This document shows positions 2,176 through 61,003 of a stretch of 64,000 nucleotides of DNA, piece after piece. The notes under the pieces are model-generated. The model had not been told where the DNA came from. It did not search any database and saw only the letters and a program-made list of their open reading frames with translations. Every line of letters starts with the position of its first letter. Within the stretch, counting starts at the first letter, position 1. The position numbers and the translations under genes are program-made. The DNA comes from a virus (lineage: Duplodnaviria; Caudoviricetes): the IMG/VR virus record IMGVR_UViG_3300020399_000003, positions 1-64,000 of that record; one strand, 5' to 3'.

Positions 2176-3918
2176 ATGACTACTAGTATTGATCAGTACA
2201 CTATAGAAACTACATGGTCTACAAGAATTACCGATGATATAGTTCTGGAAGCTATTCAAGGGGATGTACCTCAGGATATGGAAACTAATATCATGAATAC
2301 AATTACTCATTTAAATAATAATAAATGGGTAGATGACAAAGAGATTTATATTAAATTAATGTCTTTAATTCTTATAGATCATAACAGCCGACCTATTCAA
2401 GCTATTGCTACTCAGATAGGACATCTAGCAGGAATTAGCAATCCTACTGATGCTTTCGAATGGGGAATAGTACTTCTTAAAGATTGTAGAGATGTTAATC
2501 TTTATAATTTTCAAAAGAAGGATCATGAATGGAGGGTATACCCTAATTTCACATTAGATAGTAATACTAAGGACAAAATAGCTAAGCTACAGTTCTTACC
2601 TCCTATGAAGAAACAGCCTAAAGATTGGAGAGATAATTATAATGGTGGATGGCTTTGGGAGAATAAGCATTTAGTTCTTGGTAATAAGTTTACCAAGCAC
2701 GAGGAACCACTAGCTTATGATGTTATTAATAAGCTTCAAAGTATTCCTTGGGAAATAGATGCTGATACTTATCTATTTGAAAAGCAGACTAATACTGCTA
2801 TGGATAAGAAACAATTCTTAAGAGTTATAGATCAGTATTTAGGACAACATTTCTATTTTGTATGGAGATATGATTCCAGGGGTAGAAGTTATTCTTCTGG
2901 CTATGATCTTAATCTTCAGACTAATGAATATGGTAAAGCTTTATTATCTCTTCATAAGAAAGAGGTTATCACTCAATTACCAAATCTTTACATTGCTATA
3001 GCTAATCATGCTGGCAAAGATAAGCTTACATGGCAAGAACGTATTGATTGGGTTAGTACTCAAAATCCAGATACTATTGAGTGGGATGAACCTATTCTAG
3101 GTAAGAAAGCTATAAGAGCTCTTAAAGCTACTGCAGAAGGTAAACCTACTGGATATGTAATGTCAGTAGATGCTACAAGTTCTGGGATTCAAATCATGGC
3201 TGTGCTATCAGGAGATAAGCAAACAGCTAAGCTGGTTAATTGCATAGATCCTAATCAACGTCATGATCTATACAATGATGTAGCAGCTATGATGTCTTTA
3301 CAGCTAAAGAACCCAGTTCCTAGATCTATAGTAAAGCAATGCACAATGACGCATTACTATAATTCTAAGGCTACTCCCAGGGGCCTGCTATCTGAAGAAG
3401 AACTGGAAGTATTCTATCAGGTTATTGAAGGTCTACTACCGGGAGCAGAAGAAGTAATGGCTACCATTAATGGATGCTGGAATAATAATGCTGATGCGCA
3501 TTCATGGGTTATGCCTGATGGTCATAGAGTATATGTTCCTGTAGTAGAAGGTATTAATGGTGTATACTCAGATGAAGAATTCGGAGATATTCCTTTGAGG
3601 TGGTACCGTCAAACTAAATCTAATAATTATAGGTCTCTTTGCCCTAATGTTATTCATTCAATTGATGGCTATGTGGCTAGGGAAATGATTAGACGTTCTG
3701 AATTTCAACTAAGTCATATCCATGATTGTTTTGTATTTAACCCTAATCATTTACAGAAAGTATGTCAAACATACAGAGAGATTATGGCTGAATTAGCTAG
3801 CAGTGATATATTCGTTGATATCTTACGCCAAATTACGGGTAAATCGACTTTTACAATCACTAAAGCTAGTACAGATTTAGATAAGGATATTCTTCAAAGT
3901 AATTATATGTTATCTTGA
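2176..3918 (+). CDS. N4-like RNAPII (T7 superfamily), RNAP1+RNAP2 fused in one 580-aa chain
   Basis: YDSRGRSY (DxxGR), IANHAGKDK..W.ERIDW, motif A VDATSSG, motif B RSIVKQCTMTHYY, motif C SHIHDCF in one frame. Confidence 0.9.
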   Translation: MTTSIDQYTIETTWSTRITDDIVLEAIQGDVPQDMETNIMNTITHLNNNKWVDDKEIYIKLMSLILIDHNSRPIQAIATQIGHLAGISNPTDAFEWGIVLLKDCRDVNLYNFQKKDHEWRVYPNFTLDSNTKDKIAKLQFLPPMKKQPKDWRDNYNGGWLWENKHLVLGNKFTKHEEPLAYDVINKLQSIPWEIDADTYLFEKQTNTAMDKKQFLRVIDQYLGQHFYFVWRYDSRGRSYSSGYDLNLQTNEYGKALLSLHKKEVITQLPNLYIAIANHAGKDKLTWQERIDWVSTQNPDTIEWDEPILGKKAIRALKATAEGKPTGYVMSVDATSSGIQIMAVLSGDKQTAKLVNCIDPNQRHDLYNDVAAMMSLQLKNPVPRSIVKQCTMTHYYNSKATPRGLLSEEELEVFYQVIEGLLPGAEEVMATINGCWNNNADAHSWVMPDGHRVYVPVVEGINGVYSDEEFGDIPLRWYRQTKSNNYRSLCPNVIHSIDGYVAREMIRRSEFQLSHIHDCFVFNPNHLQKVCQTYREIMAELASSDIFVDILRQITGKSTFTITKASTDLDKDILQSNYMLS

Positions 3919-4925: not shown

Positions 4926-5951
4926 ATGTTTGAGGTTAACGCAGTTGAACTAGAACAAGCTCTTATTGAAGATCTAAAAGCAGGTCTTACTCCGATGGTA
5001 GCGTCCAGCCCAGGGATGGGTAAATCAGATATTATTCGTAGTATAGCTAAAACATTTAACCTTAAAGTAATTGATTTCAGAGTATCTCAGTGTGAGCCAG
5101 TAGATATGCAAGGTTATCCTGGCATAACTGATGGACGTATGACATTTCATATTCCTGAGTACTTCCCTATAGAGACAGACAGCATACCCGAAGGGTATGA
5201 TGGCTGGCTCCTATTTTTAGATGAATTTAATTCAGGTAATAAACAAACAGAAGCTGCAGCATATAAGCTTATTTTAGATCGAGAAGTATATAAACATAAA
5301 CTACATCCTAGATGTCTTATTGCCGCAGCGGGTAATTTAACTACTGATAGAGCTATTGTAAATACTCAAAGTACAGCAACTACATCCCGATTAACTCACT
5401 ATAGAATGCGAGTAGATCACAAAGTATGGATCGAGTGGGCTAATGCAAATGAGATTGATCATAGAATTATCTCACTTATTAAATTTAAGCCAGAGATTCT
5501 GCATAAATTTGATCCTCAAACTAATGAACTTACTTTCCCAAGTCCACGTACATGGGAATTCGCATCTAAAGTTATTAAGAATAAATCAGAAATAAATCAT
5601 ATTACTACTGTCAGGTTAGCTGGAACAGTAGGTGAAGGAGCAGCTGTAGAACTAGCTGCCTATTCTGAAATCTATCAGAATTTACCTACAATTGAGCAGA
5701 TACTTGCCAATCCTAAATCAGGATGGAAAGTACCTAAAGAACCTAGTGAATTATTCGCAGTCACAACAATGCTAGCCCACAACAGTACTAAAGATAATAT
5801 TGAAAAACTCATGATTGCTAACGGGCGGTTACCTACCGAGATGCAAGTAATCACGTTAAAAGATATTTATAAAAGAAATCCTAAATTAAAAAAACATCCA
5901 ATAATTAAAGAGTGGACTAGTAAGAACGCTCACATATTATTTGGTAATTAA
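4926..5951 (+). CDS. MoxR-like AAA+ ATPase (N4 gp24-like)
   Basis: Walker A SSPGMGKS, Walker B LFLDEF, AAGN, FPSPRTWE. Confidence 0.9.
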   Translation: MFEVNAVELEQALIEDLKAGLTPMVASSPGMGKSDIIRSIAKTFNLKVIDFRVSQCEPVDMQGYPGITDGRMTFHIPEYFPIETDSIPEGYDGWLLFLDEFNSGNKQTEAAAYKLILDREVYKHKLHPRCLIAAAGNLTTDRAIVNTQSTATTSRLTHYRMRVDHKVWIEWANANEIDHRIISLIKFKPEILHKFDPQTNELTFPSPRTWEFASKVIKNKSEINHITTVRLAGTVGEGAAVELAAYSEIYQNLPTIEQILANPKSGWKVPKEPSELFAVTTMLAHNSTKDNIEKLMIANGRLPTEMQVITLKDIYKRNPKLKKHPIIKEWTSKNAHILFGN

Positions 5952-5958
5952 CCATCCA

Positions 5959-6239
5959 GGCGGTTCGAGATGGAATGTCTCATCTTAAACTAGAATGGAA
6001 TTCAACCCAGCTCAATTCAATAGAGTGGGGTTAAATGAAACGCAATAACATATCTCAAGAGTAGTACCTGAGTACGGTTTAGTTCGATTTAACCAGATTG
6101 AATTCAATCCAGCACAGTAAGATACAATGGAACCAAATATCTCATCGCAATGATTAATAAACCTAGCAGCATATAATAAAATTAGGCTCGGTATTATTAA
6201 ATTTTATGAAATATGATTCAATAATTCAAAATTTAACAA
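5959..6239 (+). repeat. phased RRY-NN pentamer tracts upstream of RAMP gene (candidate guide ncRNAs)
   Basis: 5994-6048 11/11 units RRY; 6071-6140 14/14; 6160-6239 12/16; short remnant 5959-5988; shared 15-nt end motif at 5974, 6044, 6136. Confidence 0.9.
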
Positions 6240-6250
6240 GGAGATTTAAA

Positions 6251-6841
6251 ATGTATGTATCAGCAAAGTGTCATCTAAGAAGTAACAGTAAGTATAGTCA
6301 ATCACGCCCATATCAAGTAGAAAAGAAGCCTCGAGAAACACCGGGAGATTATGAAAAACGAACATGGAGAGAACGTCTCCATCTTAGTTATGAAAACCCT
6401 GAAAAAATTCAAATTCCAGGAATGCAATTTAAGAATTGTATAGCAGAATGTGCTAAGTACATGTCTAGACAAATTCCAGGTAAAGGTAAAACAACCTATA
6501 CCAAGCATTTCGAAGCAGGAATTATGCCTATGGGATCTATGGAACTAGATATCTACGCTAAAGATGTAATTGAAGAAGTAGTATTTGTTCCTTCAAGTGG
6601 AAAACGCGGAGATGGTAATCGTGTTTATAAATCTTTTCCAGTAATTAATAGCTGGGAAGGAGTAATAGAATTCTCAATATTTGATCATACGATTACAAAA
6701 GAAGTATTTATTGAACATCTAATTGAAGCCGGACAGTTTATCGGTATCGGTAGATGGCGACCTCGTAATAATGGAATGTACGGACGTTTTCTTGTTGAAA
6801 AAGTTGATTGGCAAGAAAATGAATCGGCAATCGCAGCATAG
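6251..6841 (+). CDS. solitary Cas7-like RAMP-fold protein
   Basis: AAGGAG before ATG 6251; N-terminal beta strand, IPGMQFKNCIAECAK helix, C-terminal G-rich loop AGQFIGIGRWRPRNNGMYGRFLV. Confidence 0.85.
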   Translation: MYVSAKCHLRSNSKYSQSRPYQVEKKPRETPGDYEKRTWRERLHLSYENPEKIQIPGMQFKNCIAECAKYMSRQIPGKGKTTYTKHFEAGIMPMGSMELDIYAKDVIEEVVFVPSSGKRGDGNRVYKSFPVINSWEGVIEFSIFDHTITKEVFIEHLIEAGQFIGIGRWRPRNNGMYGRFLVEKVDWQENESAIAA

Positions 6842-7132
6842 TTACATGAAATTTAGTCGAGTGCAATGAAATTTAATAAAATATAACGAAACATCTTGTC
6901 GCAATTATTACCCCCTAAAAAATTTAACTTTGGTCGAGTTCGATAAAATTCCATGCAATTTAATTGAATCGAGTATCATATAATATAATTCAACGCAATG
7001 AAATATCACATCTCAAGGATTAAAATATAGAGCACCCAGCAGGACCCAGCATAGTAAGATGTCTTGAAACGGCCTGAAATAGGTCATAATGTAATAGGTC
7101 ATCATGCAACCTAATGCAACCCCATGTAATCA
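6835..7132 (+). repeat. phased RRY-NN pentamer tracts between RAMP and partner gene
   Basis: 6835-6894 11/12; 6932-7006 13/15; 7038-7132 13/19; end motif at 6890 and 7002. Confidence 0.9.
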
Positions 7133-7146
7133 CACAAGGATTTTAT

Positions 7147-7725
7147 ATGAGTCATCCAGGAAACGATAACATCATAGATAATGAAAGGGATAAAATGGAA
7201 ACTCCAGATAACGAACCAACAGTTGATGAGAAAAGAAAACCTTTTTGTCGAGCAATCGAAACTACAGGTTTAATAAAAGAATTAAAAAAATACCGGGAAG
7301 GTGAAGAAATTCCTTACGATGCTTTAACTAAAGCAGCAATGGGAAATTGTTCTCCAGGCAAAATTAAGTATCCTTTTCTTAAATCTGCCAGAGATATTTT
7401 ATTTAAAGAAGACGGAGTCGAATTCAGAGCCATTCCTAATATTGGATTAATGCGAATGTCTGATAAAGATAAACTCAGTAAAGCTAAAAGAACTATACCG
7501 TCTTACAATAGAAAAGCTAAAAAAGATATGCACAGATTGCAAAATACAGATTTTGATAATCTAAATCCTGATGAGCAATTATGTCATAGTGTTCATTTAT
7601 CAATTCTTAACGTTCTTAGATGTTCAACATCTGGAGATAGAGTTAATAAAATTACCAAAGTAATTGCGAATAATGACCAGCCTGAAAGACTTGCATTGGA
7701 AGAAACACTTAAAACATTTCTTTGA
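7147..7725 (+). CDS. RAMP-associated partner protein, unknown function
   Basis: AAGGA before ATG 7147 (alternative ATG 7195 after AAAGGGA); basic; flanked by pentamer tracts on both sides. Confidence 0.75.
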   Translation: MSHPGNDNIIDNERDKMETPDNEPTVDEKRKPFCRAIETTGLIKELKKYREGEEIPYDALTKAAMGNCSPGKIKYPFLKSARDILFKEDGVEFRAIPNIGLMRMSDKDKLSKAKRTIPSYNRKAKKDMHRLQNTDFDNLNPDEQLCHSVHLSILNVLRCSTSGDRVNKITKVIANNDQPERLALEETLKTFL

Positions 7726-7778
7726 TCCGACAGGACCCAATCCGTTGGAATTCGATGCAATAAGACAAGACTTAACAT
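7724..7778 (+). repeat. phased RRY-NN pentamer tract downstream of partner gene
   Basis: gatcc gacag gaccc aatcc gttgg aattc gatgc aataa gacaa gactt aacat: 10/11 RRY. Confidence 0.85.
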
Positions 7779-7788
7779 CGAGGTACTT

Positions 7789-8004
7789 ATGAAAACAGTT
7801 CCAATAGAAGAGTTAGGTATTAATGACGGTACATTTAATGCTCTTAAGAATGCAGGCATTACAACCGCTAATGAACTACACCAAATGAATGATAATAAAC
7901 TATTAGCTATTCATGAAATAGGACCTGTTAGGCGTAAGATTATTAAAAACGCTATAGCAACTATACGTGGAGACCTAATAGATCTACCACCTATTGACTG
8001 GTAA
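7789..8004 (+). CDS. stand-alone RNA polymerase alpha C-terminal-domain-like (HhH) protein
   Basis: IEELGINDGTFNALKNAGITTANELHQMNDNKLLAIHEIGPVRRKII matches the alphaCTD pattern ieeL.ls.R..NcLk.agI.t..dL...e.eLl.i.nlG.ks..eI. Confidence 0.8.
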   Translation: MKTVPIEELGINDGTFNALKNAGITTANELHQMNDNKLLAIHEIGPVRRKIIKNAIATIRGDLIDLPPIDW

Positions 8005-14833: not shown

Positions 14834-14909
14834 GCCCTTGTAACTCAAATGGTAGAGTAACTGATGATTAAATCGGTAGTTGGTGGTTCAAATCCACCCA
14901 AGGGCCCCA
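14834..14909 (+). tRNA. tRNA(-like) gene with atypical 8-nt anticodon loop, C73, encoded CCA; isotype undetermined
   Basis: Acceptor GCCCTTG/CAAGGGC, D stem ACTC/GAGT, anticodon stem ACTGA/TCGGT with loop TGATTAAA, T arm GGTGG-TTCAAAT-CCACC. Confidence 0.8.
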
Positions 14910-21061: not shown

Positions 21062-21218
21062 TCTACAAGAAGCACTACTAATAGTGAGTAAACTATTAAA
21101 TGATTACTTAAACGATCCTAATATTTCAGTAACCAAAGAACAAGAACAAGCTGTACTATTAATTAGAGATATAGCTGAGGGTAACGGTTGGAGTATTCAG
21201 AATGAATTCCGGGATTAG
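21054..21218 (+). CDS. small hypothetical protein (54 aa)
   Basis: Read by eye: MINLQEALLIVSK...QNEFRD; stop overlaps vRNAP stop. Confidence 0.5.
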   Translation: MINLQEALLIVSKLLNDYLNDPNISVTKEQEQAVLLIRDIAEGNGWSIQNEFRD

Positions 21219-24200
21219 AAATTCTTTAGATCTGATAGTACTTCAAAGAGAGTTATATTATTTGCTTCATCAAATAGATCATCAGTCTGGAAGACATTCG
21301 GTGAGAAGTCTCCACCCATCCAAGCACTATTCACATTACCTAGAGTAGGAATTCCGGACATTTCCTGTAGAAGAGCAGAGATAGCAACAGATGATGGATT
21401 ACTCATTACTAGTTTCTTAACAGCTCTTTGATTTCTTAACCAATAAGATAAAAAGGAAGTAGCACCAAGAGCGTCAAGCATTTCTAATGGAGCAATAAGA
21501 GACTCATCAAATAATACGAATGCTTCTAATGCTTCATGTAATGATTCTTTAAAGGATTTTCCTAAAACATTTTGACTATGTTCCATCATTACATATCGAC
21601 CCATAAAATCTGTCATCTGTACTACTTGTTTAGAGTATTGATATGGAATACTTTCTTTAGTCCAAAACAATGTATGTGCAACTGTTTGTACTGATCGTGG
21701 AATTTTATCCCCAACGTTTTTAAGTTTACCTTTAAATAGTAGACGAGACATTCTATTCCAATATCCATCCAACTGAGCCGCATTAAGATCCTCAATAATT
21801 AATGAATCCACACCTGCTTCATTCATTTTATGAATTTTATTTCCTTTAATTCTAACTCTTAATCTTTTTACTTTTTGAGCTTCAGGACTATTATCTGGTA
21901 ATTTTTTTGTATCAATATCATACTGAAGCTTATTCATTTCAATAGTATCTTTACTGTATTTCTTATATTCAGAAAGTCCTTCAATTAATTTATTAAAAAT
22001 ATAAGACGGTGGAATTTTACGCATCATTAACTGTGTTACATTTGACATCATATTCAAAAATATAACTTTTGGAATTGCTAATACTACTCGATTCTTACCC
22101 CACCCTACTGTTTCTTTAATTGTATAATGACTTAAACCGGCAACTCTTTCAGCTAATGGATGTTTATTATTCTCAAAAATTTTTGCTTGAGTAATATCTT
22201 TTTGTTTATATCCAAAGACCTTATCAACAATATCAATTCGAACCATGAACTCACCATTAACAGCAAACTCTTGCATATATTCTCGAATTGGACGAGGCAT
22301 TTTCTTATAACGTTCATGATATGCCGATGCGGGATCTAACATATTAATAAACTGCTTCGGGTGAGTTTTATATAGCTCTTCCTGTTCATGTACTAATAAG
22401 TGAATTGTTTCTTTATCATTTAAAATCGTATTTTTACGATCCACTAAATTAGAATGCATATGCGCAAATACATTCTGGAATTCTAAATCAGGTCTAATAA
22501 TATTTTTTGTGTCTTCATGATTCATCATTATTCGATAATCAACTATCTTATTATTCTGATCAAATAACGGACGAAATTTAAATCGATCATCAAATCCTAA
22601 CTTCTTAGCTAGTTTATTTTGATGTTGTTTAAATTGTTTAAGCTTAGCGCGAATTGCAGGCATATCTGGCCTACCAGTATTACCAACCTGATAGGCAGGA
22701 TTTAAACTTAATATTTCTGTTAACGTTGTTCCTTGATTCCGTGTATTAGTCGTAGACATAATCCCAGATACATCTTTTACTTCTGGTTTATTTCGATTAA
22801 TATACATAACATAGTGTGTTTGATTAGTAGCTATTTTACTTAATTTAACAGACTCTGTATATCCTCTCTCATCAAATTCCTCTTTTTGTTCTACTGTACC
22901 AATTTGAATATCAGTTAGATTATCCATGCGTTCGACAACGTATCCTTTCATCATTTGAGTAGGATCACCATCGAATAAATCTTTTCGAGATTTTGCTTTA
23001 AAATTAATATGCGCTTGCATAATACTAATAATGCCATTTTGTTGAGAATCAGCTTTAAATTCATTTTTAGCTAAGTCTTTAATTAAATGAGCATCTTGTG
23101 TATCAATATGATCTAATGCTGAAATGGTTGCATATGCATCTAATAAACCTACTCGTTCTTCTGTAGGATTAGAAAGATAATCTAAAGCTATTGAATATGC
23201 ATTAGATCGAGCGTCTGCTAATCGTTCAGTTAATCCTGTCATTTGCCAATACCCTAATTCATCAGCATATTGGATAGCAGCACTATCTGCTGTTACACCT
23301 AATCTGCGTAGTATATCTAGTTGTAATTGTTTTCTAGCTCGTATTGAATTCTTATCTTTACCAATTAATCCAATAATCTTTTTCATTCCAGCAGGTGAAT
23401 TAAGATCTAAACCGGCAGTTATAAGTTGAGATATATCACTGCGTAACATTACATTAGTGAGTGCTTCCCTGGTTTCAACAGACATAGCATGTCGTTTAGT
23501 TGGATCTAATGATTTCCAAATACTTTTTATCCCATCTCGTTTATTTCCATTAAACCAATCTATTTGGAATGTTTCTGCTAGTTGACGTTGTTTTGATATA
23601 TGAACTTTTGATTGAAGTAGTTGTTCAATCATTTTCTCACTAAGAACACCATCTCCAAATTCTTTAAGAAGTCCTCGCATTGAATAGTTCATTTTTTCCA
23701 TCCAACTATTCCGAGCTTCAGTGATAGTATTATCTTCACCAAAATAAATATATGGTAGTGCAATTAATCCAGTAGCAATTTTTAATCCAGGATCAGCACT
23801 TTCAAAACTAGGTTTTCCTTCTTCAGTAGATTTAACTACTGCTCTCGCATATTTTTTATAAGCTTTATTAGCAAAATTTCTAATTATTTGATCAGATGCA
23901 TCTAAAGCTTTATATGTTTTACTTTGTATTTGTTCAGCTTTACTTTTATGTTTATTCTGAATTGCAACGAGTTGTTCAGTTATGGCAATAGCTTCTGACA
24001 ACTGTAAGTCATTCTCAGGCTTATACACACGTTGCCCTAACACTTCTCTAACAATATCAACAATATTTTTAATCATATCTAACATTCGTCCGTATAACCC
24101 GGTCCTTTGAGCAATGGAATTACTCTTCATGAAATTAGATAGAGACGCATTCGTATTAGCATAAGCCATAAACTCATGTAATCGAGCTTCTTCTTTTGCA

Positions 24201-27200
24201 TGGAATGCATGCTGATATTGTTTTTTAGCCATAACAATTTCTGCAGCAGTAGCTAATTTTGTAGGACCTGTACCAGGTGGTAAGAACACTTTATAACCTT
24301 GTCCTTTACCGTATGTTAGTTCTAAAGTAGTTTCAACATTTGAATACAATCTTTCAATTCTTTGCCTAACTAAAGGGGATTGATCAATAGCTATAGAAGT
24401 CATCCCATGTAGTAGTTCATGAGTATAGACTTCCTGAGGAGATTGACCATTACGAATTCTTGGGGCATTTCGACTAGCTGAAATTGTTATTCTTTCTTGA
24501 GCTTCACTATATGTTCCTTGAGTAATTCCTTCGATTTGTTCATATGTTAATTGAATGCCTGCTGTTGCATCAAAACCTTTACTTAATATATCTAATACGC
24601 GACTTAGACTATCTGTATGACTAGCTTCTTCTTCCGCGTTATTATAATAATTACCTGATAGCTCAACAAAATCATTAAATAATGTTTTAACTTTATTACG
24701 AGTTATGTCACCCATATCTTTTGGGTCACCATAAATCTTTCCTTTCTCAGCCAGTAAAGATTTTAATTCTTGTTTATCCTCTTCAGTAAAAAAGTCAAAA
24801 GAAGTTTGATGTTCTTCGTACGTTCTAGTAAATGTTTCTGCGATCTCTTTTTTAGCTACTGGATTACGTTCTCTATTATTAACTGATTCTTCAGCTGTAG
24901 CTAACATTCCCTCTCTCAATACTTGATCTTGAGATTGACCTTCTGGTTTCTGCATAAACATTTGTAGAGATTCATTAAGTCCACCATTTTCAGAAGCTAA
25001 TTTTTCAAGTTGTCGTCTTGCTTCTAAAACTTTGTCTTTTACTTTTGCAAAACCTTCTATTAGTTCTTGATAACCAATTTTGTCATCATCAGATTTATTC
25101 TTATTATCAAAAAATTCATTTTTAACCCAATCCATAAGTTCTGCTTCAAGACTACGAACACCTTCAGGCCATTCATTATTGTTTTTTTCTACAATATCAT
25201 TATCCATTTGAGAGGTAATACCAAGAACCTTTTGGACTTGATCATAAGTTTGCTCAATAACACTATGTGTTCGATTATAGTGGAGAAACAATTGTCCATA
25301 AGCTGCACTAATGGTAGATAGCTGTTCTGGGCTAGCCATAAATGCATCATGTAGCATTAATACATTTAAATCCCCAACCCAACGTTTACCATCAACATTA
25401 ATATTTGAATCACCATTCATTGTCTGAGTTAGCAGAACAGAGTCCATATTAATGATCTGACGAATTAAAGCAGACACTCCAGGCTCAATAAATCTTAATT
25501 GTTGTGGGAAGGTATTATGAGTTTGAGAAGTATTAGAATCATACTTACCATCTTTACCCTGATTAGCTGTTCTATATTCTATTCTTTCGTCAGCAAGTTT
25601 ATCTCTACCTTGAAGACTTGAAACTAAATCTAATTGTATTTCTTCAGGAATATCCTTTTTAAAATTTATTATTTTAATTAATCTAGTTTTAGCATTTTCA
25701 GTTAAGTCATCTACATTCTCTTCAACAAAATTAATGAGTTCTTTACTACTCATTTTATCAATGTTTTCAGGTACTCCTATTTTCTCGTTTAGTACTGAAA
25801 CATTTTCAGTTTTAGATAAATCAATAAATCCTTCCGTATTACCATTTTCATCAATACTAGATATAGGTCCTTTATACTGAGGAAATACTTTAATCAACTC
25901 ACCTTTTGTATCTTTAATTAACTTAGTTAATTCATGTTTAGTTAAAGAACTACGACCAACTTCTTTTAATTTTGTATCATAGGCTCGTTTAAAATGAACC
26001 ATAAACGTACCATGCAGTACTCCACCCATTTGAACAATGGTATCTCTAGCTTCCTGAGTAGGCGCTAACATAGTCTTAAGACCATGATCAAATCGAGGAG
26101 CTATTGTAGTACTGATATTGGCACGGAGGTAATTATCATTAAAATATTTATTTAATGATTCACCTTTTTTCATAGATTCTATAAATTGTGCTTTTGTAAC
26201 AACAGGTTTAGTACCTCGATTCTCTTGTCGAAAAGCTCCTAATGCTTCTAATGCATTTACAAAATCAGTCATCTGTTTTGCATAACTTCGTAATTCTTGA
26301 GCAATATCTGCAGCTTCTCCTTCAAGTCGTTCACCTACGTCTGTAAATTTATATTGTTGGAAAAAAGCTTCTGCTTCTGCAGACGATGCTCTCATACTAT
26401 TGTATGTTTGTTGCATTACTCCAACTTGGGAGTAGAGTTCACTAATAATATCTTTAGTAACGTCTTTAGAAATACGATCTATACCGCCACCGTACATATG
26501 GATAATAAACGGGTATTTAACTACACTGCGTAGGGCTCCAGCATCTTGTGTAAAATCGGGGTAGATAGTATTAAGTGCAGCATTTAATTTATTATAGTCA
26601 CTAAGTAAATTCTCAGCAGCTTTCTTCTCAATTTTTTCATTACCTTTATCTTTTTTCTTTACATGATAATTCCATTTATTTTCTTTATATAAAGAGAATT
26701 CACTATAATCATCTTTCCATCGATTCTTATTAATAAAATCAATTGCTATCTTATTGGATTTAGATTCAAGATTTAATGTTCCATCGCCCATTGCTTCTTG
26801 TACATACTCTGCAAGAGTCTGATAGGTATCTGGAGCTTTAGTATCATGCTCAGTATCATTACCAAAATATGTAGCTACTTTAGCAAGCATCTCTGGCATA
26901 TTTTTCCACATAGGAAATTGCATAACATTCATTGCAAAGCCATTAGAGATACCATCAATCTCCATAACAATATCTGATTCAAATGATTTATTAATTGTTT
27001 TTCTAAAGCCAAGCTTAGCTGATTTACTAGGAGATACGGTCATGTACTGAGCTAATCCAGCAATACCCTGGAGTAAAGACATGTTGCCACCTTTAGTATC
27101 TTCGCCAAATTTAACAATAGATAACGCATCAGCAAATTCTTTAGCTGCTGCTTTCTTCGCCACCAGTGCATTCTTATGCTTAGTCTTATTAGCTTTTTTA

Positions 27201-30200
27201 AGCTTAGTGCTCTCTACAAGATTTCTTGCTTTAGTTAATTTTTGATAAGCATGAACTGCAGCTAATACATTACTGTTATTAACAAGATCATTAAAATAAG
27301 TTTTTGAGTCACCATAAGTTTGTTTATCAATATCACTTCCAAAATTCTGAGCAACAGCTAACTCAAACTTCCATAGATTTTTTTCGTTGTAAGTTTTTGG
27401 TTCCCAGGATTTTAATAGGAAACGATCAACTTTACTTCCTTGAGGATTGATCTTGCCTTCTTGCATAATACGATGATGATTCTGCAGGCTATAAGTAAAA
27501 TAAAATTTATCTAATTCATTACGATCATTAGCCTCTACAAGTCTTTTTAAGCTAGCTAATTTATCTCTATTAGAAGCTGCTTTAGACTCCATATCATATT
27601 CATGCCATCTACCTTTTTTAATAGGTTCACCGTTTTTATCTATTTTACGTTTACCATCTTTATCTAATACATATACATATTCACCATTAGCATCTTTTTC
27701 ATATAATTCTTCAATACCCATTACTTGTTCTAGAACATCACTATGATCTTCAAATAGATCACTAACTATATCCATTGGTTGAGATTTACTCCATTCAACC
27801 TTATGTAGTTTTTTCATGAGTCTTTGAACTTCTTGAGGTACTTCTCCAAAAGTACCGGGTACATCAGTTCGAATATCTCGTGGATTTTGTAGCGGACCAG
27901 CATTAGATTGAATATCTAAATTAAGTGTTGTAGTTAGATCCTTTACTGCAGCTAATCCCTCTTCTGAAGGTGGGCGCTTCTCATTAACCTTAAGTTGCCT
28001 ATATCCAAATCCATCTTTATCAGCTTTAGACCCCTTAACATTATTGTTATAGGCTCTGCCTGGTACAGTAGCTTCATCGAATGCCCATTTATGTACATCT
28101 TTAATAAAGTAAGCTTCACTATCATTGCCTTGAGCTGTTTCAATAGCTGCCATTCCAAGAGCAGGAATTAGATGTTCATAGTATATATCTATTCCTTCTT
28201 GTGTTAATTCACCAGAAGCTTTAGTTGGGGATAAGTGTAGCATCTGGGATATGTCATATCCTATCTGTCTAGCTACATCGTTATAGCTGTATCCTAATTT
28301 ACCTAGTTCAGTCTTCTCATTTTGATTTAATTTTTGAGTATTATTATAGAGAAAAGTTTCCATTTTATAGTCACTATCTCCAAATACATTATTATCTGCA
28401 GTTCTTTGTCTCCATGTCATTGCACCAACCATCATTGAGAATATAACTTGATTAGGTAATATTCCTTGATGATTATCAGGATTTTTCGTATCTTCACGAT
28501 ACAGTAATGACAAGGGTTGTCTAATAGCGTAATTAGTTGTATCAATTAAATTTGCAAGTGGGACTGTAAGAGCTTTACCATCATTTGCATTAGGAGCTTG
28601 AATTACTGCTTCTTTTCCTTTAATAGCTAAAACTTTAAATTGGGTACCCGCATATTTAGCTTCATTTTCAGTAGAGCTACTATCTACTAATACAACTGTA
28701 TTTCCTTTTACAATTGCATGATAAAGAGTTTCTCTAAAACGTTTTGCAAATTTGCTGTACCTAGCAACTAAAACTTTAGCTGATTTAGGATCAAGTCCTA
28801 GATTTGTTAATGCTTTAGTTAGTGCTTTAGTAGATTCAAAATCAGCATCAGAAAGAGTATGAATACCTCCTTCTTTAACTCGTTTACCTATATTAACTAA
28901 ATCAGTAAATTTTTTCCCAACTAGGCCGAGAGCTTTATCTAAATTATCTTTGCTTACTGCTTTAAGAGCTGTTTGATATATTAGAGTAGCAGACTCTACA
29001 AAATTCTTTCCTGCGAAGGAGAATTCGATTTGCTCTCCGGGCTTACCTTCTTCATCTTTAGTAGTTTCTCGCACATCAGGAGTAGATTCATCAGGAGATT
29101 TAGCAGATTCTTCAGGTGCTTTATCTTCTGTCCGAGTGTCATCTCCTGCTGGTTCATCAGTTTTGGATTCTGCGATACGTGATTCAAGACCTGCAATTGT
29201 TGTTTTGAGTTCGTCAATTTTGTCTCGAAGAATTTTTTTATTCTCATCACCTTCCCCCAGTTCATTAAATGCATCAACAGTAGTCTTTAATTCTGTTTTA
29301 GCTTCTTTTAATTGATTTTCTAAAGTAGAAGCTTCGTCTACTGTTTCATCAATTTTAATATCTTCTCGTTGTTCATCTGTTACTTCTTCAACAACGCGAG
29401 GCATAGCCCCTCTTAGCTTAACTAGTGTGTCATATACGTTTTGCTTAGCTTTAATCTTAATTTCTTGATTAGCAGCTGTTTGGGCCATAGAAGTCTTCTT
29501 ATAACCCTGCACTGTTCCCATAATTAACTTGCCATATTTAACTTCTCCTTCTAAATTATTAATAAGACCATCAGACTTATTAATAGTAAAGTTTGCAAAT
29601 TTATGGGTTTTATCACTGATAAGAGTAACGAATTGTCCATTAGTTTTACGAGCTTCAAATGATGATCCTTCTTTATATTCAACTCCATTAGCTTTAGCTT
29701 GAGCTTTTGCATCTGCTTCAGTTAATGGCATAGAAACCGTTTTGTAGTTCATTTTGCGTACACCTCTCGGTGACTTTTCATCAATTGAACCTACAACAAC
29801 AGCACCCATACCAGAGGCTAAGTTAGGGATCATACCTTTAGCTCGTTTAAACTCAGCCAATTTACTACTTAAATTAGTCGCATGAGTAATCATTTTCGAA
29901 GTAAGTGCTCTAATATGTCTGTCACGAAGTACAGGATCAGTTAGATTCTTATACGAATTAATAATTTCTTCATGGTATTTAGCTAAACCTTTCCACTTTT
30001 TAGTATCACCTTCTAAAATTTCTTCATGAACATCAGCCATTGTTTTTTCGGCTTGTTCTTCTTTTTCAGCTCTTTTAGCTTTTTCTATTTTTCTATCAAC
30101 TTGATTTTGCCAATAGAGTGTATCTTCTGCAGGAGCATCTGGATCTGCTTTTGATTGCGCTAATTTTTTCTTTGTTTCATCAATGGATAATTTATCATGC

Positions 30201-33200
30201 TCTTCTTCGCTATCCTCAATAGAACCAAATGTTTTACCCCCTTTACCGTCATCTTTAGGAGCATATTTTTTAACAAACTCATCAAATTTAGCTTGGACTA
30301 ATTTTCGAGCCTCATCGCTCATATTGCGTTGAGTTAATTCTTGAAATTTTTCTAGTATCGTACGAGGAGTTTCATCAGGGCGAACTCGAGGAATTAACTG
30401 GTCTACTGGAATAGTTTCAGTTAGACCTTTTATGCGTACATGCACTTTTCCATCTTTTAATAATCCAACAATTTCTTCAATTACATAGCCTTGTGTATCT
30501 TGACTTTCTTGATTTTCATCATTTTTTAGATCAACTATATCACCAGGTCCGTAATCTGGATGATCTTCAATAGGTATGTAGTTAGGATTATTTTTTGGCT
30601 CAGCAAGCATTGTTATTTCTTCTAAAATAGCATCAACCCCACTATCATCAATATCTTTTCCAGCATTTTTATTAATTTGAACATTAACTATATTTTCTTG
30701 CTTACCTTCAAGTTGAGTTGTTACTTTTTCTAATTGAAGTTTTTGATATTCTTTTTCAGCTTTTAATAAACTTGGTTTAGCTGTTTCTTCTAATACCTTT
30801 CCAATTTTATTTATTTTTTCTTGTACTTTTTCCGTAGCTATAATTTTTTGAATATCAGAAGATTTTTCATCAGCTTCAATTGTTTTAAGATCTTCTTCAT
30901 ATCCTTCAACTTCTTTATTTAATGCTTCCCCATATTGTGTATCTTTTACTTTAATCGTATCAGTATCTGACCGTCCTGCAAAAGTTTCTCTTATACTATT
31001 TTCTTTAGTAACAACTTGAGGTAAACGACTTTGTAATGTATCTAATTCTGACCCTGAAGTATTTAAATTTTCTTCTAAATCTGTACTAATAGCATTTATC
31101 ACATCGTCTACAGTACCATTAGTTTGATTAGCTAAATCTTTATGTTTCTCAAATAATTTTTTAATTTTAGGATTTTTTGTTTCTACTTTTAATTCACCAC
31201 TTTTTGCATCAGTAGTAACATTAGGTAATTCAGCTATAGCTGATTCAACTTCTACAACTTCATTAGTTAGTTCTTCTAAACGCGCAAGATCTTTAGGATT
31301 CGTATCCTTTTCAAATTTTTCAATTCTTTTAATTTGTTCTTCTATTGCAGTTTTTTTCTTTTTTAATCCATCTTTTAATTGTTGTTCATTTGATGGACTA
31401 AGAATTTTTTTAGTAACAGCTGTTGTTACATTTGCTGCAACAAATGTAGGTCCTAATGTTAGAGATCCAAGTCCTTCCATTAATGCGCCCTTATATGTTG
31501 CTCTCCAATCAACTGTTTCTTTGGGTAGTTGTCCCTCAATAACTACTTCTGCACCACCTTGAACAGCTTCACCAGCTGCACCACTTACGAAATCAACAGC
31601 TTTACCTCCAATTTTACCTAAAATTTTAATGCTAGTAGGAGTATTCTCTCCTATCTTTTTAGCTATTTTTCGAATCCACTGCACATGTCCTCCAGGAGGA
31701 CCTTTACCAACTACTTTATCTAAATAACCTAAACTTATTTTTTGAGTAATTACTTTTAATGCCATCCAATTTTCAATAGAATTTTGAACTTCTGGCGTGT
31801 AATTTTCTTCCCCATGCTTTTCAATCCATGCTGCTTTAGCACGTTGAGATTCATCTCTAATAAAAGTAGTTAATGTGGCACTTCCTGTAAACAATCCTCC
31901 AGCAACTAAAGCTAAAGAATACGCAGCACTACCTAATCCTTCTTTAGCATAAGCTGCTTTATGATTTTTTAACATTTCCCAAACAGCAGCAAGTTCACCA
32001 TCTTTATCAGCAATTAAATCATAAATTGATTGACTCGCTTGAAATCCAGCATCATTTGTTGGGAAAAGAGCTCTCCATTTATCCGCGTATTCTGTAATCC
32101 TTTCTCTTTGTTCGTTGTTTTCATCAGCTTCTTTTTGTAATTTAGAAAGTACTCCAAATTTTGGATCGTTTTTAAATTGTTCTTGAGCAGTAGTTAAAGT
32201 TTTACTAGTAAGAATAGATCTATACATTTTAACATCTGCAGGTGTAAGATCAGTTTCTTTCTTATTAAGTAGTACTTGAGCCTGTTTTAATTTATTATAA
32301 TTATTAACTTTTCCTTGTAGACTTTGTTCTCCAACAATAGCACCTGCAACATATGCATCAAGACCACCAATACTTCCCATTAAATAGTTCTTAACATCAC
32401 CAATAGACCATTCTTTATAAGCACCATTAGCTTGATTTGCAGCATCTCGTGCAAAACGAGTAGCATAATAAGTTGCTTCTTCTTCAGTTAAATTAGTTAC
32501 GGGTTTACCATTAATAATTGCAACCCATGTACCATCTTCAAGTCCTAAAACATTAGGTCCTTTAGTTTTAACAACTGGAGAATTTATCTCCATATGTGGT
32601 GCTTCAGTTAATGCAAGAACACTAGCTTTTACATGTGGACTAACATCCATATTCATAATAGATAAACGTTGTTCTTCTTTAGGATCACTGCTACTTACTA
32701 AATCATAATAATTAACATTAGATGGGGGCGGTAATGTAGATGGATCTGATTTTGCTCCTACTCCTATAGCTATACTATCTCCTGCTTTTCCTAAACCTTC
32801 TAATGCTTCACCTGGAGCTTTAGATCCACCTTTAACTAATGCATCTTTTGCATCAACCCATTTTTCTTTATCAGATAGTATTTCTCCAGATTTACTTACT
32901 CCTTTTACAAAATTATTTTTTGCATCAACTAATCTATTGCCAAGTTCTTTAGCTATTTCAATATCAGCTAAAACATCTTTTGTTATTACTGTAGCGGTAC
33001 CTTTAACTTTAGCAACTCCTGTATCAATAAGTTCATCTGCTTTATTAAGTATGTCATTACCAAATGCTTCTAATTGATCAAATACTTTAGCAGCATCAGC
33101 AGTAGAAGGAAGATCAGGAAGTTGATCTGTAATTGATTTAACAGCTTTTTCGGCACCTTTTAGTGCTAAATCTGGAGCTTGTGAAACACCACTAATAAAA

Positions 33201-59428: not shown

Positions 59429-59959
59429 TTAGCAATTACAAGCACAGGCACAAGCACATGCCCCACCAAAACAAGCCGGACCGTTAGTTGTGCAATTAGG
59501 ATGATTGTTGCAGTTATTTGGAGAATTATTACAATTAGTCTTACCATTACCATTTGTTGCGCAATTGGGATGATTATTACAATTACTAGAGGAGTTGTTA
59601 CAATTAGTAAATCCTCCTCCATTAACTGAACAGTTAGGCATACCATTCCCATTAGTTGTACAATTTGCATGCCCAGAACCATTGGTTGTACAGTTAGCAT
59701 GATTAGTACAGTTAGTTTGCCAGGTATTATCTCCTCTTAAATACTTTCCAGCACTAGGAGAGGCTCCCATTCGTGCAGGAACTAATGTACCACTACTAAT
59801 GTTATCCGCATTAGTGGTATCTGTTGTAGCTGAAGCAACCAGAGCAGGTTTGTTTAATAAGGTATTCCAATCTGATGCAGGGGCATTGTCTAATGCTCCT
59901 CCAATAACATCACCGCCACTATCTAAAAGTCGTGCTATTTCATCTGCTCTAGTAGTCAT
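59429..59959 (-). CDS. Cys/Asn-rich tail-associated protein, paralog 4
   Basis: MTTRADEIARLLD leader, YLRGDNTW, NC repeats, ends CACACACNC. Confidence 0.8.
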   Translation of the reverse strand: MTTRADEIARLLDSGGDVIGGALDNAPASDWNTLLNKPALVASATTDTTNADNISSGTLVPARMGASPSAGKYLRGDNTWQTNCTNHANCTTNGSGHANCTTNGNGMPNCSVNGGGFTNCNNSSSNCNNHPNCATNGNGKTNCNNSPNNCNNHPNCTTNGPACFGGACACACACNC

Positions 59960-59971
59960 TAATTAACCTCT

Positions 59972-60481
59972 TTAACAATTGCAGGCACAAGCAGCGCAAG
60001 CACCATTATGTGTACAATTGGGATAGCTAGTACAGTTGCCGCTAGAATTATTACAGTTAGTTTTACCATTGCCATTCGTAGCGCAATTACTATGATTACT
60101 ACAATTACTAGAAGTATTATTACAGTTAGTTTTGCCATTACCATTAGTTGCACAATTAGTATGACCACTACCATTAACGGCACAGTTTGCCATACCGTTA
60201 CCATTCGTTGTACAATTTGCATGATTGGTACAATTAGTCTGCCAAGTTCCATCGCCTCGTAAGTATTTTCCAGCACTAGCAGAACCGCCTACCCGTGCAA
60301 CATTTAATGTACCTGTGCTGATATTATCTGCATTAGTGGTATCAGTAGTTGCACTAGCCACAAGTGCTGGCTTATTTAAAAGGGTATTCCAGTCACTAGC
60401 AGGCATATTATCTAAAGCACCTACAATAACATCTCCACCGCTATCTAAAAGCCTAGCTATCTCTGATGCTCTAGTTGTCAT
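59972..60481 (-). CDS. Cys/Asn-rich tail-associated protein, paralog 3
   Basis: Same leader; ends CAACACNC. Confidence 0.8.
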   Translation of the reverse strand: MTTRASEIARLLDSGGDVIVGALDNMPASDWNTLLNKPALVASATTDTTNADNISTGTLNVARVGGSASAGKYLRGDGTWQTNCTNHANCTTNGNGMANCAVNGSGHTNCATNGNGKTNCNNTSSNCSNHSNCATNGNGKTNCNNSSGNCTSYPNCTHNGACAACACNC

Positions 60482-60493
60482 TAATTAATCTCC

Positions 60494-61003
60494 TCAACAA
60501 TTACAAGCACAAGCTGCCGGAGCACCATTTGTTGTACAATTAGGGTGATTCGTGCAGTTACCGCTAGAGTTATTACAGTTGGTATAAGTATTGCCATTAG
60601 TGGCACAATTAGCATGATTGGTGCAGTTACTAGAAGAGTTATTGCAATTAGTTTTACCATTGCCGTTTGTTGTACAATTAGCATAACCATTTCCGTTAGT
60701 CGCACAATTAGCGTGACCACCGCCATTTGTGGCGCAATTCCCGGTATTAGTACAATTGGTTTGCCATGTTCCATCTCCCCTTAAATATTTCCCTGAAGTT
60801 GGAGACCCACCTAATCGAGCAGCATCTAACGTACCTGAGGTTATATTATCTGCATTAGTAGTATCTGTCGTAGCAGACGCAACTAATGCAGGTTTATTTA
60901 GCAAAGTAGTCCAATCTGATGGAGGAGCATTATCTAATGCACTACTCTCCACATCGCCACCACTATCTAGAAGATTTGCTATTTCTGTTGATTTAGTTGT
61001 CAT
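60494..61003 (-). CDS. Cys/Asn-rich tail-associated protein, paralog 2
   Basis: Same leader; ends ACACNC. Confidence 0.8.
   Translation of the reverse strand: MTTKSTEIANLLDSGGDVESSALDNAPPSDWTTLLNKPALVASATTDTTNADNITSGTLDAARLGGSPTSGKYLRGDGTWQTNCTNTGNCATNGGGHANCATNGNGYANCTTNGNGKTNCNNSSSNCTNHANCATNGNTYTNCNNSSGNCTNHPNCTTNGAPAACACNC

Follow-up and report, generated by a model that had tools for sequence, protein, structure and literature searches.

A lone RAMP gene among phased pentamers

The stretch of viral DNA analysed here (64,000 nt; hereafter the window) belongs to IMG/VR record IMGVR_UViG_3300020399_000003, the complete genome of which measures 74 kb. It carries, on the plus strand, two open reading frames (ORFs) separated by non-coding DNA: vipr, which encodes a 196-residue Cas7-like protein of the Vipr family of RAMPs, and a partner gene of 192 codons. 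Six same-strand cassettes of 11-19 pentamers (vr1 to vr6) flank vipr, and in each pentamer a fixed RRY triplet (R, purine; Y, pyrimidine; as RNA, most often AAU or AAC) precedes a free dinucleotide, NN. We conclude that the locus is, with high confidence, an intact Viral Interference Programmable Repeat (VIPR) system of a lytic marine N4-like phage. The layout is minimal, with a lone RAMP and a single adjacent accessory gene. As originally noted, no CRISPR-type repeat array was found in the window; neither gene matched a PADLOC family, no exhaustive scan of the whole window for cas genes having been run.

Period-5 Fourier power, measured in 100-nt segments, peaked at 5941-6081 and 6881-6941, where it rose to 5.19 against a mean of 0.73 (standard deviation 0.45) for the window. 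The signal rose again at 7661-7681, to values (2.2-2.6) that a few other sites of the window also reached. All 64 kb were parsed on both strands for phased RRY-NN units, which yielded seven plus-strand tracts, every one inside 5994-7778, and a sole minus-strand tract (6075-6109) in the same locus. Shuffling the 667 nt of non-coding DNA of the locus gave an expectation of 0.005 tracts, compared with the seven observed, and block-shuffled windows gave 0.8 tracts over the two strands, the best of which scored 7.5, compared with up to 14 for the real tracts. These findings bear out the claim that phased RRY-NN DNA lies before, between and after the two genes. Of the 82 units in the six good tracts, 72 (88%) have an RRY triplet, where about 12% would be expected, and every unit has C or T at position 3. 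AAT (31 units), AAC (11) and AGT (10) are the most frequent triplets, 49 units (60%) contain no G in their first two positions, and each of the 16 dinucleotides is used at NN. Together with their in-phase tails, the tracts make up about 80% of the non-coding DNA of the locus, as counted from the parser coordinates.

Similar tracts accompany the gene elsewhere. Vipr homologues number 2,135 and are mostly metagenomic; all ten IMG/VR loci had period-5 tracts beside the gene, and in a profile-based set of 79 family loci (50-97% identity) RRY-NN tracts were present on the gene strand in 68, with 232 tracts on that strand versus 34 on the opposite one. We considered the possibility that the tracts are not guide RNAs but DNA-level elements, either iteron-like arrays for a winged-helix partner or phased, bendable regulatory DNA. 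The partner does resemble a DNA-binding protein, the tracts directly adjoin the start and stop codons of neighbouring genes, and transcription of the guides is proposed by homology. Yet the tracts are strand-specific, their association with Vipr extends over more than 60 loci, well beyond the small sub-clade to which the partner family is limited, and a variable NN combined with a fixed triplet and a 3' tail is the experimentally demonstrated architecture of VIPR guide RNAs (vrRNAs). We therefore regard DNA-level elements as a very improbable explanation.

The predicted product of vipr contains both the G-rich loop and the IPG..FKNCI helix by which the 196-residue ORF had first been singled out, as well as a beta-hairpin at residues ~107-132, at the presumed position of the thumb. 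Its assignment to the Cas7-like RAMPs was confirmed by structure and sequence comparison, which gave the RAMP fold, the G-loop and homology to the Vipr of phage SUSP1. The only sequence match in the PDB was entry 36pp, 'SUSP1 Vipr protein' (E 3e-4), across the thumb and the G-loop, and comparison of a profile of the present clade with the Vipr of the Felixounavirus wV8 returned a probability of 96.9% (E 1.3e-10). Identity to the wV8 protein is about 21%, with confident alignment only over the C-terminal 81 residues. The closest solved folds are the RNA-targeting Csm3 and the type VII Cas7. Vipr matched no Pfam family and a single PHROG, of unknown function.

The partner gene matched no Pfam or PHROG entry. 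Only 35 homologues were found, many of which begin at an internal methionine, Met17. One adjoins vipr in the related locus L007 (hhalign 98.8%, E 7e-17). An AlphaFold2 model of the protein (pLDDT 70) has an alpha-beta-alpha-alpha-beta-beta topology, and its Foldseek matches, though weak (E > 0.1), are mostly to winged-helix DNA-binding domains, so that the protein is probably DNA-binding. The single accessory gene that had been proposed thus proves to be clade-restricted and winged-helix-like.

Relation to known VIPR systems

VIPR was described in 2026 as a system made of a Vipr RAMP, a vap gene and vrRNAs of 9-16 YNNGG repeats followed by a 3' tail (bioRxiv 10.64898/2026.04.26.720920 and.720927); the 'VIPR' that the original prediction had named is the one reported there. 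In the published mechanism, one protomer binds each repeat and sequesters GGY, NN pairs with double-stranded DNA (dsDNA) with a skip of one nucleotide, and transcription is repressed; the known targets are satellites, prophages and rival phages. The type II system of SUSP1 consists of Vipr, vap1 and four vrRNAs with a pseudoknotted tail (bioRxiv 10.64898/2026.04.26.720920,.720927, 10.64898/2026.10.15.759431; PDB 36pp). At the wV8 reference locus, a 195-residue Vipr, the residues of which fit the SUSP1 numbering of the structure paper, and a 146-residue vap product are encoded, with GGT-NN repeats on both sides.

The present locus shares with the SUSP1/Felixounavirus systems a lone RAMP of about 195 residues, in which both a G-loop and the motif WRPR..GRF occur, and an operon of two genes carried by a lytic phage. 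Also in common are gene-strand cassettes of ~10-16 pentamers both up- and downstream with a pyrimidine-ended fixed triplet and a free NN, a conserved sequence at the 3' end of most cassettes and the absence of any self-target in the searches made. It differs from SUSP1 in its scaffold (AAY/RRY instead of GGY), in the G-loop (an arginine in place of the G1-reading Asp177, and a four-residue NNGx insertion), in the thumb (phenylalanine instead of Arg138) and in its tail (a 15-nt motif instead of a pseudoknotted extension). Unlike the Felixounavirus systems, it is carried by an N4-like marine virus, and its partner has no detectable similarity to the vap of wV8, nor to the ORF downstream of vipr in the relative L009. 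With a Vipr about 21% identical to that of wV8, another partner and another tail, the system lies outside VIPR type II (the SUSP1 clade). It is also distinct from the class 1 CRISPR RAMPs (Csm3 of type III-A, Cas7 of type VII), in that no CRISPR array and no other cas genes lie nearby, the step is 5 nt instead of 6, the guide would be read non-contiguously, and the protein is phage-encoded.

A further preprint derives non-canonical VIPR arrays from the periodicity of language-model entropy and, in its text, names GAC/NN, CAC/NN, WGT/NN and TGH/NN among 21 clusters and 6,318 sequences (bioRxiv 10.64898/2026.10.21.760802). The present tracts resemble these arrays in their period of 5, their ~10 units, the adjacent Vipr-like fold and the non-GGY triplet; their AAY-dominated scaffold is not among the motifs named in that text. 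The VIPR class, its mechanism and the existence of non-GGY scaffolds are thus already published. What distinguishes the present locus is its AAY scaffold, its short tail, its new partner family and its N4-like marine carrier.

Across the 79 family loci, the scaffold follows G+C content (GC): GGC or pure GAC is used at GC >= 0.45, and AGC, AGT and AAT at 0.33-0.37. Users of GAC and AGT (L177, L178 and L146) are found inside the present clade, most members of which use GGC. The AAY scaffold is therefore the AT-rich end of a GGC, GAC/AGC, AGT, AAT series within one Vipr clade, a mainstream VIPR clade of which an AT-rich N4-like branch has drifted to AAY. Two side observations concern these scaffolds. 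In L177 and L178, all 39-48 units are pure GAC, and in L007 (a contig that also appears as L201) positions 2721-2982 and 3514-3691 contain NN-GTT units (GAGTT, CGGTT, AAGTT), which have T at position 2 and are largely missed by the RRY parser.

On the protein side, the whole present clade differs from the GGY-type Viprs of SUSP1/wV8 and DSL-LC04 by the replacement of Asp177 by Arg, by the NNGx insertion and by the replacement of thumb Arg138 by Phe or Tyr. The change from Asp to Arg in the G-loop was considered as the cause of A-acceptance and ruled out, because the GGC-using members of the clade share the arginine. Residues that track A-rich scaffolds in two lineages, a comparison with few independent lineages, are P20, C67, M71, V111, an aromatic residue at 126 and W169.

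The dependence of the scaffold on genome GC could also be read as the mark of a decaying or inactive relic, in which A-rich repeats arose by mutational drift in an AT-rich genome; vr5 is indeed degenerate and vr6 lacks a canonical tail. Drift would, however, erode the invariant pyrimidine at position 3 and the high proportion of RRY. Furthermore, neither ORF is disrupted, their conservation is 77-97% in many marine samples, and several diverged lineages have retained the synteny and the build of the cassettes; in Tara Oceans contigs the order AAA ATPase, array, vipr, array, partner, array, alpha-CTD-like gene (CTD, C-terminal domain), DUF2201 is retained. Of the explanations considered, a relic appears the least probable.

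Guide cassettes and their candidate targets

The cassettes (Table 1) were compared with those of L001, a related locus with a Vipr 97% identical and about twice as many cassettes. vr1, vr2, vr4 and vr6 are common to both, whereas vr3 and vr5 occur only in the present phage. The NN string of vr1 (GG TC CC TC TC AG GG TA GA GC AA) is identical in L001 (11/11), as is that of vr6 (11/11), the core of which, CC CC GG YC GC AA, is kept in L005 and L014; 13 of 14 NN are shared for vr2, the first eight units being nearly the same in L014, and 14 of 15 for vr4. DNA contigs from other samples retain the genes and break or diverge at the arrays. This comparison indicates that cassettes are gained and lost between near-identical strains, a turnover that would fit a panel of guides directed against changing competitors or host genes. 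As a separate observation, units 1-7 of vr2 keep an RRY-NN phase on the opposite strand too, where they are overlapped by the minus-strand tract; this 5' part is the portion conserved with L014.

Table 1. Features of the VIPR locus, in window positions (L001, related locus with a 97% identical Vipr).
Feature	Position	Strand	Composition	Basis or remark
Degenerate phased units or leader before the first guide	5959..5993	+	GAT-GG, AAT-GT, CTC-AT, CTT-AA, ACT-AG	Same sequence precedes the homologous L001 guide
vr1	5994..6070	+	11 RRY-NN units (5994-6048); variant tail CATATCTCAAGAGTAGTACCTG (6049-6070)	Parser
vr2	6071..6155	+	14 RRY-NN units (6071-6140); 15-nt tail CTCATCGCAATGATT (6141-6155)	Parser
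vipr leader	6160..6250	+	Weakly phased, AT-rich	Parser score 8.5; ribosome-binding site AAGGAG (6238-6243)
vipr	6251..6841	+	196-aa Cas7-like RAMP; G-loop GIGRWRPRNNGMYGRF; helix-1 at 57-71	
vr3	6835..6931	+	12 units (6835-6894); tail CTTGTCGCAATTATT (6895-6909); spacer ACCCCCTAAAAAATTTAACTTT (6910-6931)	Parser
vr4	6932..7037	+	15 units (6932-7006); tail CACATCTCAAGGATT (7007-7021); spacer (7022-7037)	Parser
vr5	7038..7146	+	19 more degenerate units (7038-7132); short tail-like CACAAGGATT (7133-7142)	Parser
Partner (vap-like) gene	7147..7725	+	192 aa; winged-helix-like core (residues 36-103), then long helices	
vr6	7724..7788	+	11 units (7724-7778); no canonical tail	Parser

The cassettes are tightly fitted to the genes: vr3 overlaps the stop codon of vipr, vr6 that of the partner gene, and the tail of vr5 abuts the partner start and provides a Shine-Dalgarno-like AAGGA. 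The vipr leader (6160-6250) has no homologous NN run in L001 and is probably not a guide but a 5' untranslated region or promoter. Most cassettes end in a 15-nt tail, CAYATCKCAAKGATT, which stays in phase with the pentamers; it follows the last unit in 29 cassettes, drawn from five diverged loci, and is succeeded by a spacer, which is either ACCCCCTAAAAAATTTAAC, a T-rich stretch or a variant of GTAGTACC; vr1, vr5 and vr6 have variant or missing tails. A mini-hairpin of 4 bp and a triloop in the tail has modest support, with 83% of cells paired versus 74% in shuffles and a GU/UG swap in eight sequences. The spacer motifs are unique to the locus across the 74-kb genome, which rules out ACCCCCTAAAAAATTTAAC as a genome-wide phage promoter. 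Matches to sigma-70-type promoters occurred only at chance level, and no Rfam family, the hammerhead included, matched in 5800-7900. In two GC-rich relatives (L009, 4031-4311, and L010, 4031-4541), the cassettes terminate in AAGGGCAGTACC, which resembles CTCAAGAGTAGTACC after vr1 of the present phage; this likeness suggests that one tail type may persist across Viprs ~51% identical.

Targets were sought for the guides with several skip rules. In the complete 74-kb genome, no self-target was found at skips of 0-3 apart from the tracts themselves; published VIPR controls likewise have no self-targets (2026 VIPR preprints). At a skip of 1, there was no excess of matches either for the guides of related phages against the present genome or for all guides against the vipr genes, partner genes and flanks of relatives. 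A single 16/18 match in the vipr gene of L014 is not wobble-aligned and has the frequency expected by chance. Exact 10-unit patterns gave zero matches for vr1 and vr6 in IMG/VR, for vr2 in metagenomes and for vr4 in genomes. Seeds of 8 or 9 units extended at chance level for vr2, vr4 and vr6 in IMG/VR and for vr4 in metagenomes. Ten of 13 vr2-seed matches were wobble-aligned, as expected for a codon-like seed, and they were spread over at least four different-looking ORFs. With up to three mismatches, vr2, vr4 and vr6 matched nothing in five candidate host genomes.

The match of vr1 to tRNA-Glu(UUC) is of another kind. Its 9-unit seed, at a skip of 1, had 48 matches in 185,579 species genomes, 39 of which lay on the 5' end of tRNA-Glu(UUC), where positions -2 to +24 of the sense strand agree exactly with the first nine NN units. 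The identity of the full guide at these sites is 18-21 of 22 (19-21 for most), and the 39 matches represent one conserved family. They include three marine gammaproteobacterial metagenome-assembled genomes (MAGs) of 1.4-1.6 Mb from one family, the tRNA-Glu loci of which have a GC of 0.33-0.36, compared with 0.35 for the phage; the other guides matched nothing in these MAGs. About 0.01 tRNA matches would be expected, a rough and post hoc figure (tRNA genes make up ~0.1% of the collection, and the nine non-tRNA matches were taken as background), and the p value of the association is of the order of 0.01-0.03, again rough and post hoc. One of the nine non-tRNA matches also reaches 21/22, so that no significance attaches to the score by itself. 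Of the 1,525 guide windows taken from the 79 loci, none exceeded 15/18 on tRNA-Glu with any skip, except vr1 of this lineage, with 18/18 at a skip of 1, and the match appears under no other skip rule. No phage-borne tRNA-Glu was matched by the vr1 seed in IMG/VR. A location of the tRNA-Glu gene within an rRNA operon was also considered and did not hold in the four MAG loci checked (L100, L116, L134 and L115). We put forward only tentatively, as a possibility the sequences suggest, that vr1 may be aimed at a host housekeeping gene, tRNA-Glu, rather than at a rival mobile element.

These results also bear on the possibility that the locus is VIPR-like but that the filament acts on RNA, as the Cas7 backbones of types III and VII do, or uses a skip other than 1 nt, with no DNA roadblock. 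The RNA-targeting nature of the closest solved folds, the scaffold-reading residues unlike those of SUSP1 and the lack of a clear target for five guides in the 1-nt-skip searches are in keeping with this. Against it stand the homology of the protein to the Vipr of SUSP1, which binds DNA, the canonical GGC repeats of most clade members, and the fact that the only striking match, that of vr1, appears at skip 1 alone. An action on RNA, or another skip, is in our view unlikely.

We favour instead a VIPR system acting on DNA, in which, by homology to SUSP1, the cassettes would be transcribed into vrRNAs of ~80-100 nt and one Vipr protomer would cover each pentamer, hiding RRY and displaying NN. The NN of the filament would then pair with dsDNA read as NN-x-NN-x, blocking transcription, and the partner protein would assist this roadblock. 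The AT-rich RRY variant of VIPR that had been predicted, with several guides and an accessory gene, is thus matched by six cassettes, a partner gene and homology to the SUSP1 Vipr.

Several observations weigh against this interpretation. For five of the six guides, the searches turned up no convincing target. Only 3 of the 82 units are GGY, which excludes the canonical form of VIPR but not the family, since published work allows 'a related consensus' to GGY; the discovery paper lists the variants NNNGG, YNNNG and NNNNG. Since the residues with which SUSP1 reads G are replaced throughout the clade, RNA recognition must differ in detail. No pseudoknot is evident in the tail, which has only 15 nt, and no relationship could be detected between the partner and the Felixounavirus vap. 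The expectation that pentamers would always flank the gene in homologues, which held for the ten IMG/VR loci and for 68 of the 79 family loci, failed for the other 11, in which the parser found no RRY tract; these may use other scaffolds, such as GTT in L007, or have truncated flanks. Finally, a single RNA-library contig from an L001-like strain covers a tract end and the 5' part of the partner gene; DNA carry-over is possible, and the contig is a weak hint of expression.

Carrier phage and implications

The carrier is a lytic marine N4-like phage, as the original prediction had supposed with respect to N4. The window encodes a virion RNA polymerase of 4,506 residues (21215-34735, minus strand; phrog_2206, E 1e-144) and a DNA polymerase ~40% identical to those of Schitoviridae-type phages. 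The virion RNA polymerase of N4 itself is about 1,000 residues shorter. At its N-terminus, the present enzyme has a transglycosylase-like segment (residues 143-276, phrog_4067). No DNA similarity to cultured phages was found, and no close Vipr relative among 50,697 cultured-phage records, the protein matches being weak and partial. Near-identical DNA is present in marine or seawater runs of 12 studies; RNA runs were set aside as proof of expression or habitat, their shares being too small.

The neighbours of the locus are genes for an AAA ATPase, an RNA polymerase alpha-CTD-like protein, a DUF2201 protein and a DNA polymerase. The alpha-CTD-like gene (7789-8004, plus strand) encodes 71 residues with a helix-hairpin-helix resembling the C-terminal domain of RNA polymerase alpha (PF03118, E 1e-7). 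It begins 10 nt past vr6, a position kept in Tara contigs L014-L016, and its product may be part of the VIPR module or of the transcription control of the phage. Elsewhere in the window, ARAGORN made its sole tRNA call at 14834-14909 (plus strand), a tRNA-like sequence with a four-base anticodon (atta) and an undetermined amino acid, and three tandem repeats of ~69 nt, with ~2 copies each, lie at 59480-60719 in seemingly paralogous coding regions.

If vr1 does target tRNA-Glu, host takeover by a lytic N4-like phage that supplies an RNA polymerase of its own would involve an RNA-guided roadblock at a tRNA gene of the host, and the match would also point to the host lineage. This would be a VIPR system directed against a host core gene, a case we did not find in the VIPR preprints cited here. 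More generally, the fixed VIPR triplet is not tied to guanines, since it passes from GGC to AAT as GC falls, with the pyrimidine at position 3 and the free NN intact. This gradation offers a natural set of variants from which the reading of the scaffold by Vipr might be worked out, and it bears on the engineering of guides of different composition. With this locus, VIPR is extended to the N4-like marine phages, which are abundant in ocean metagenomes, and gains a new family of accessory proteins and a much shorter tail.

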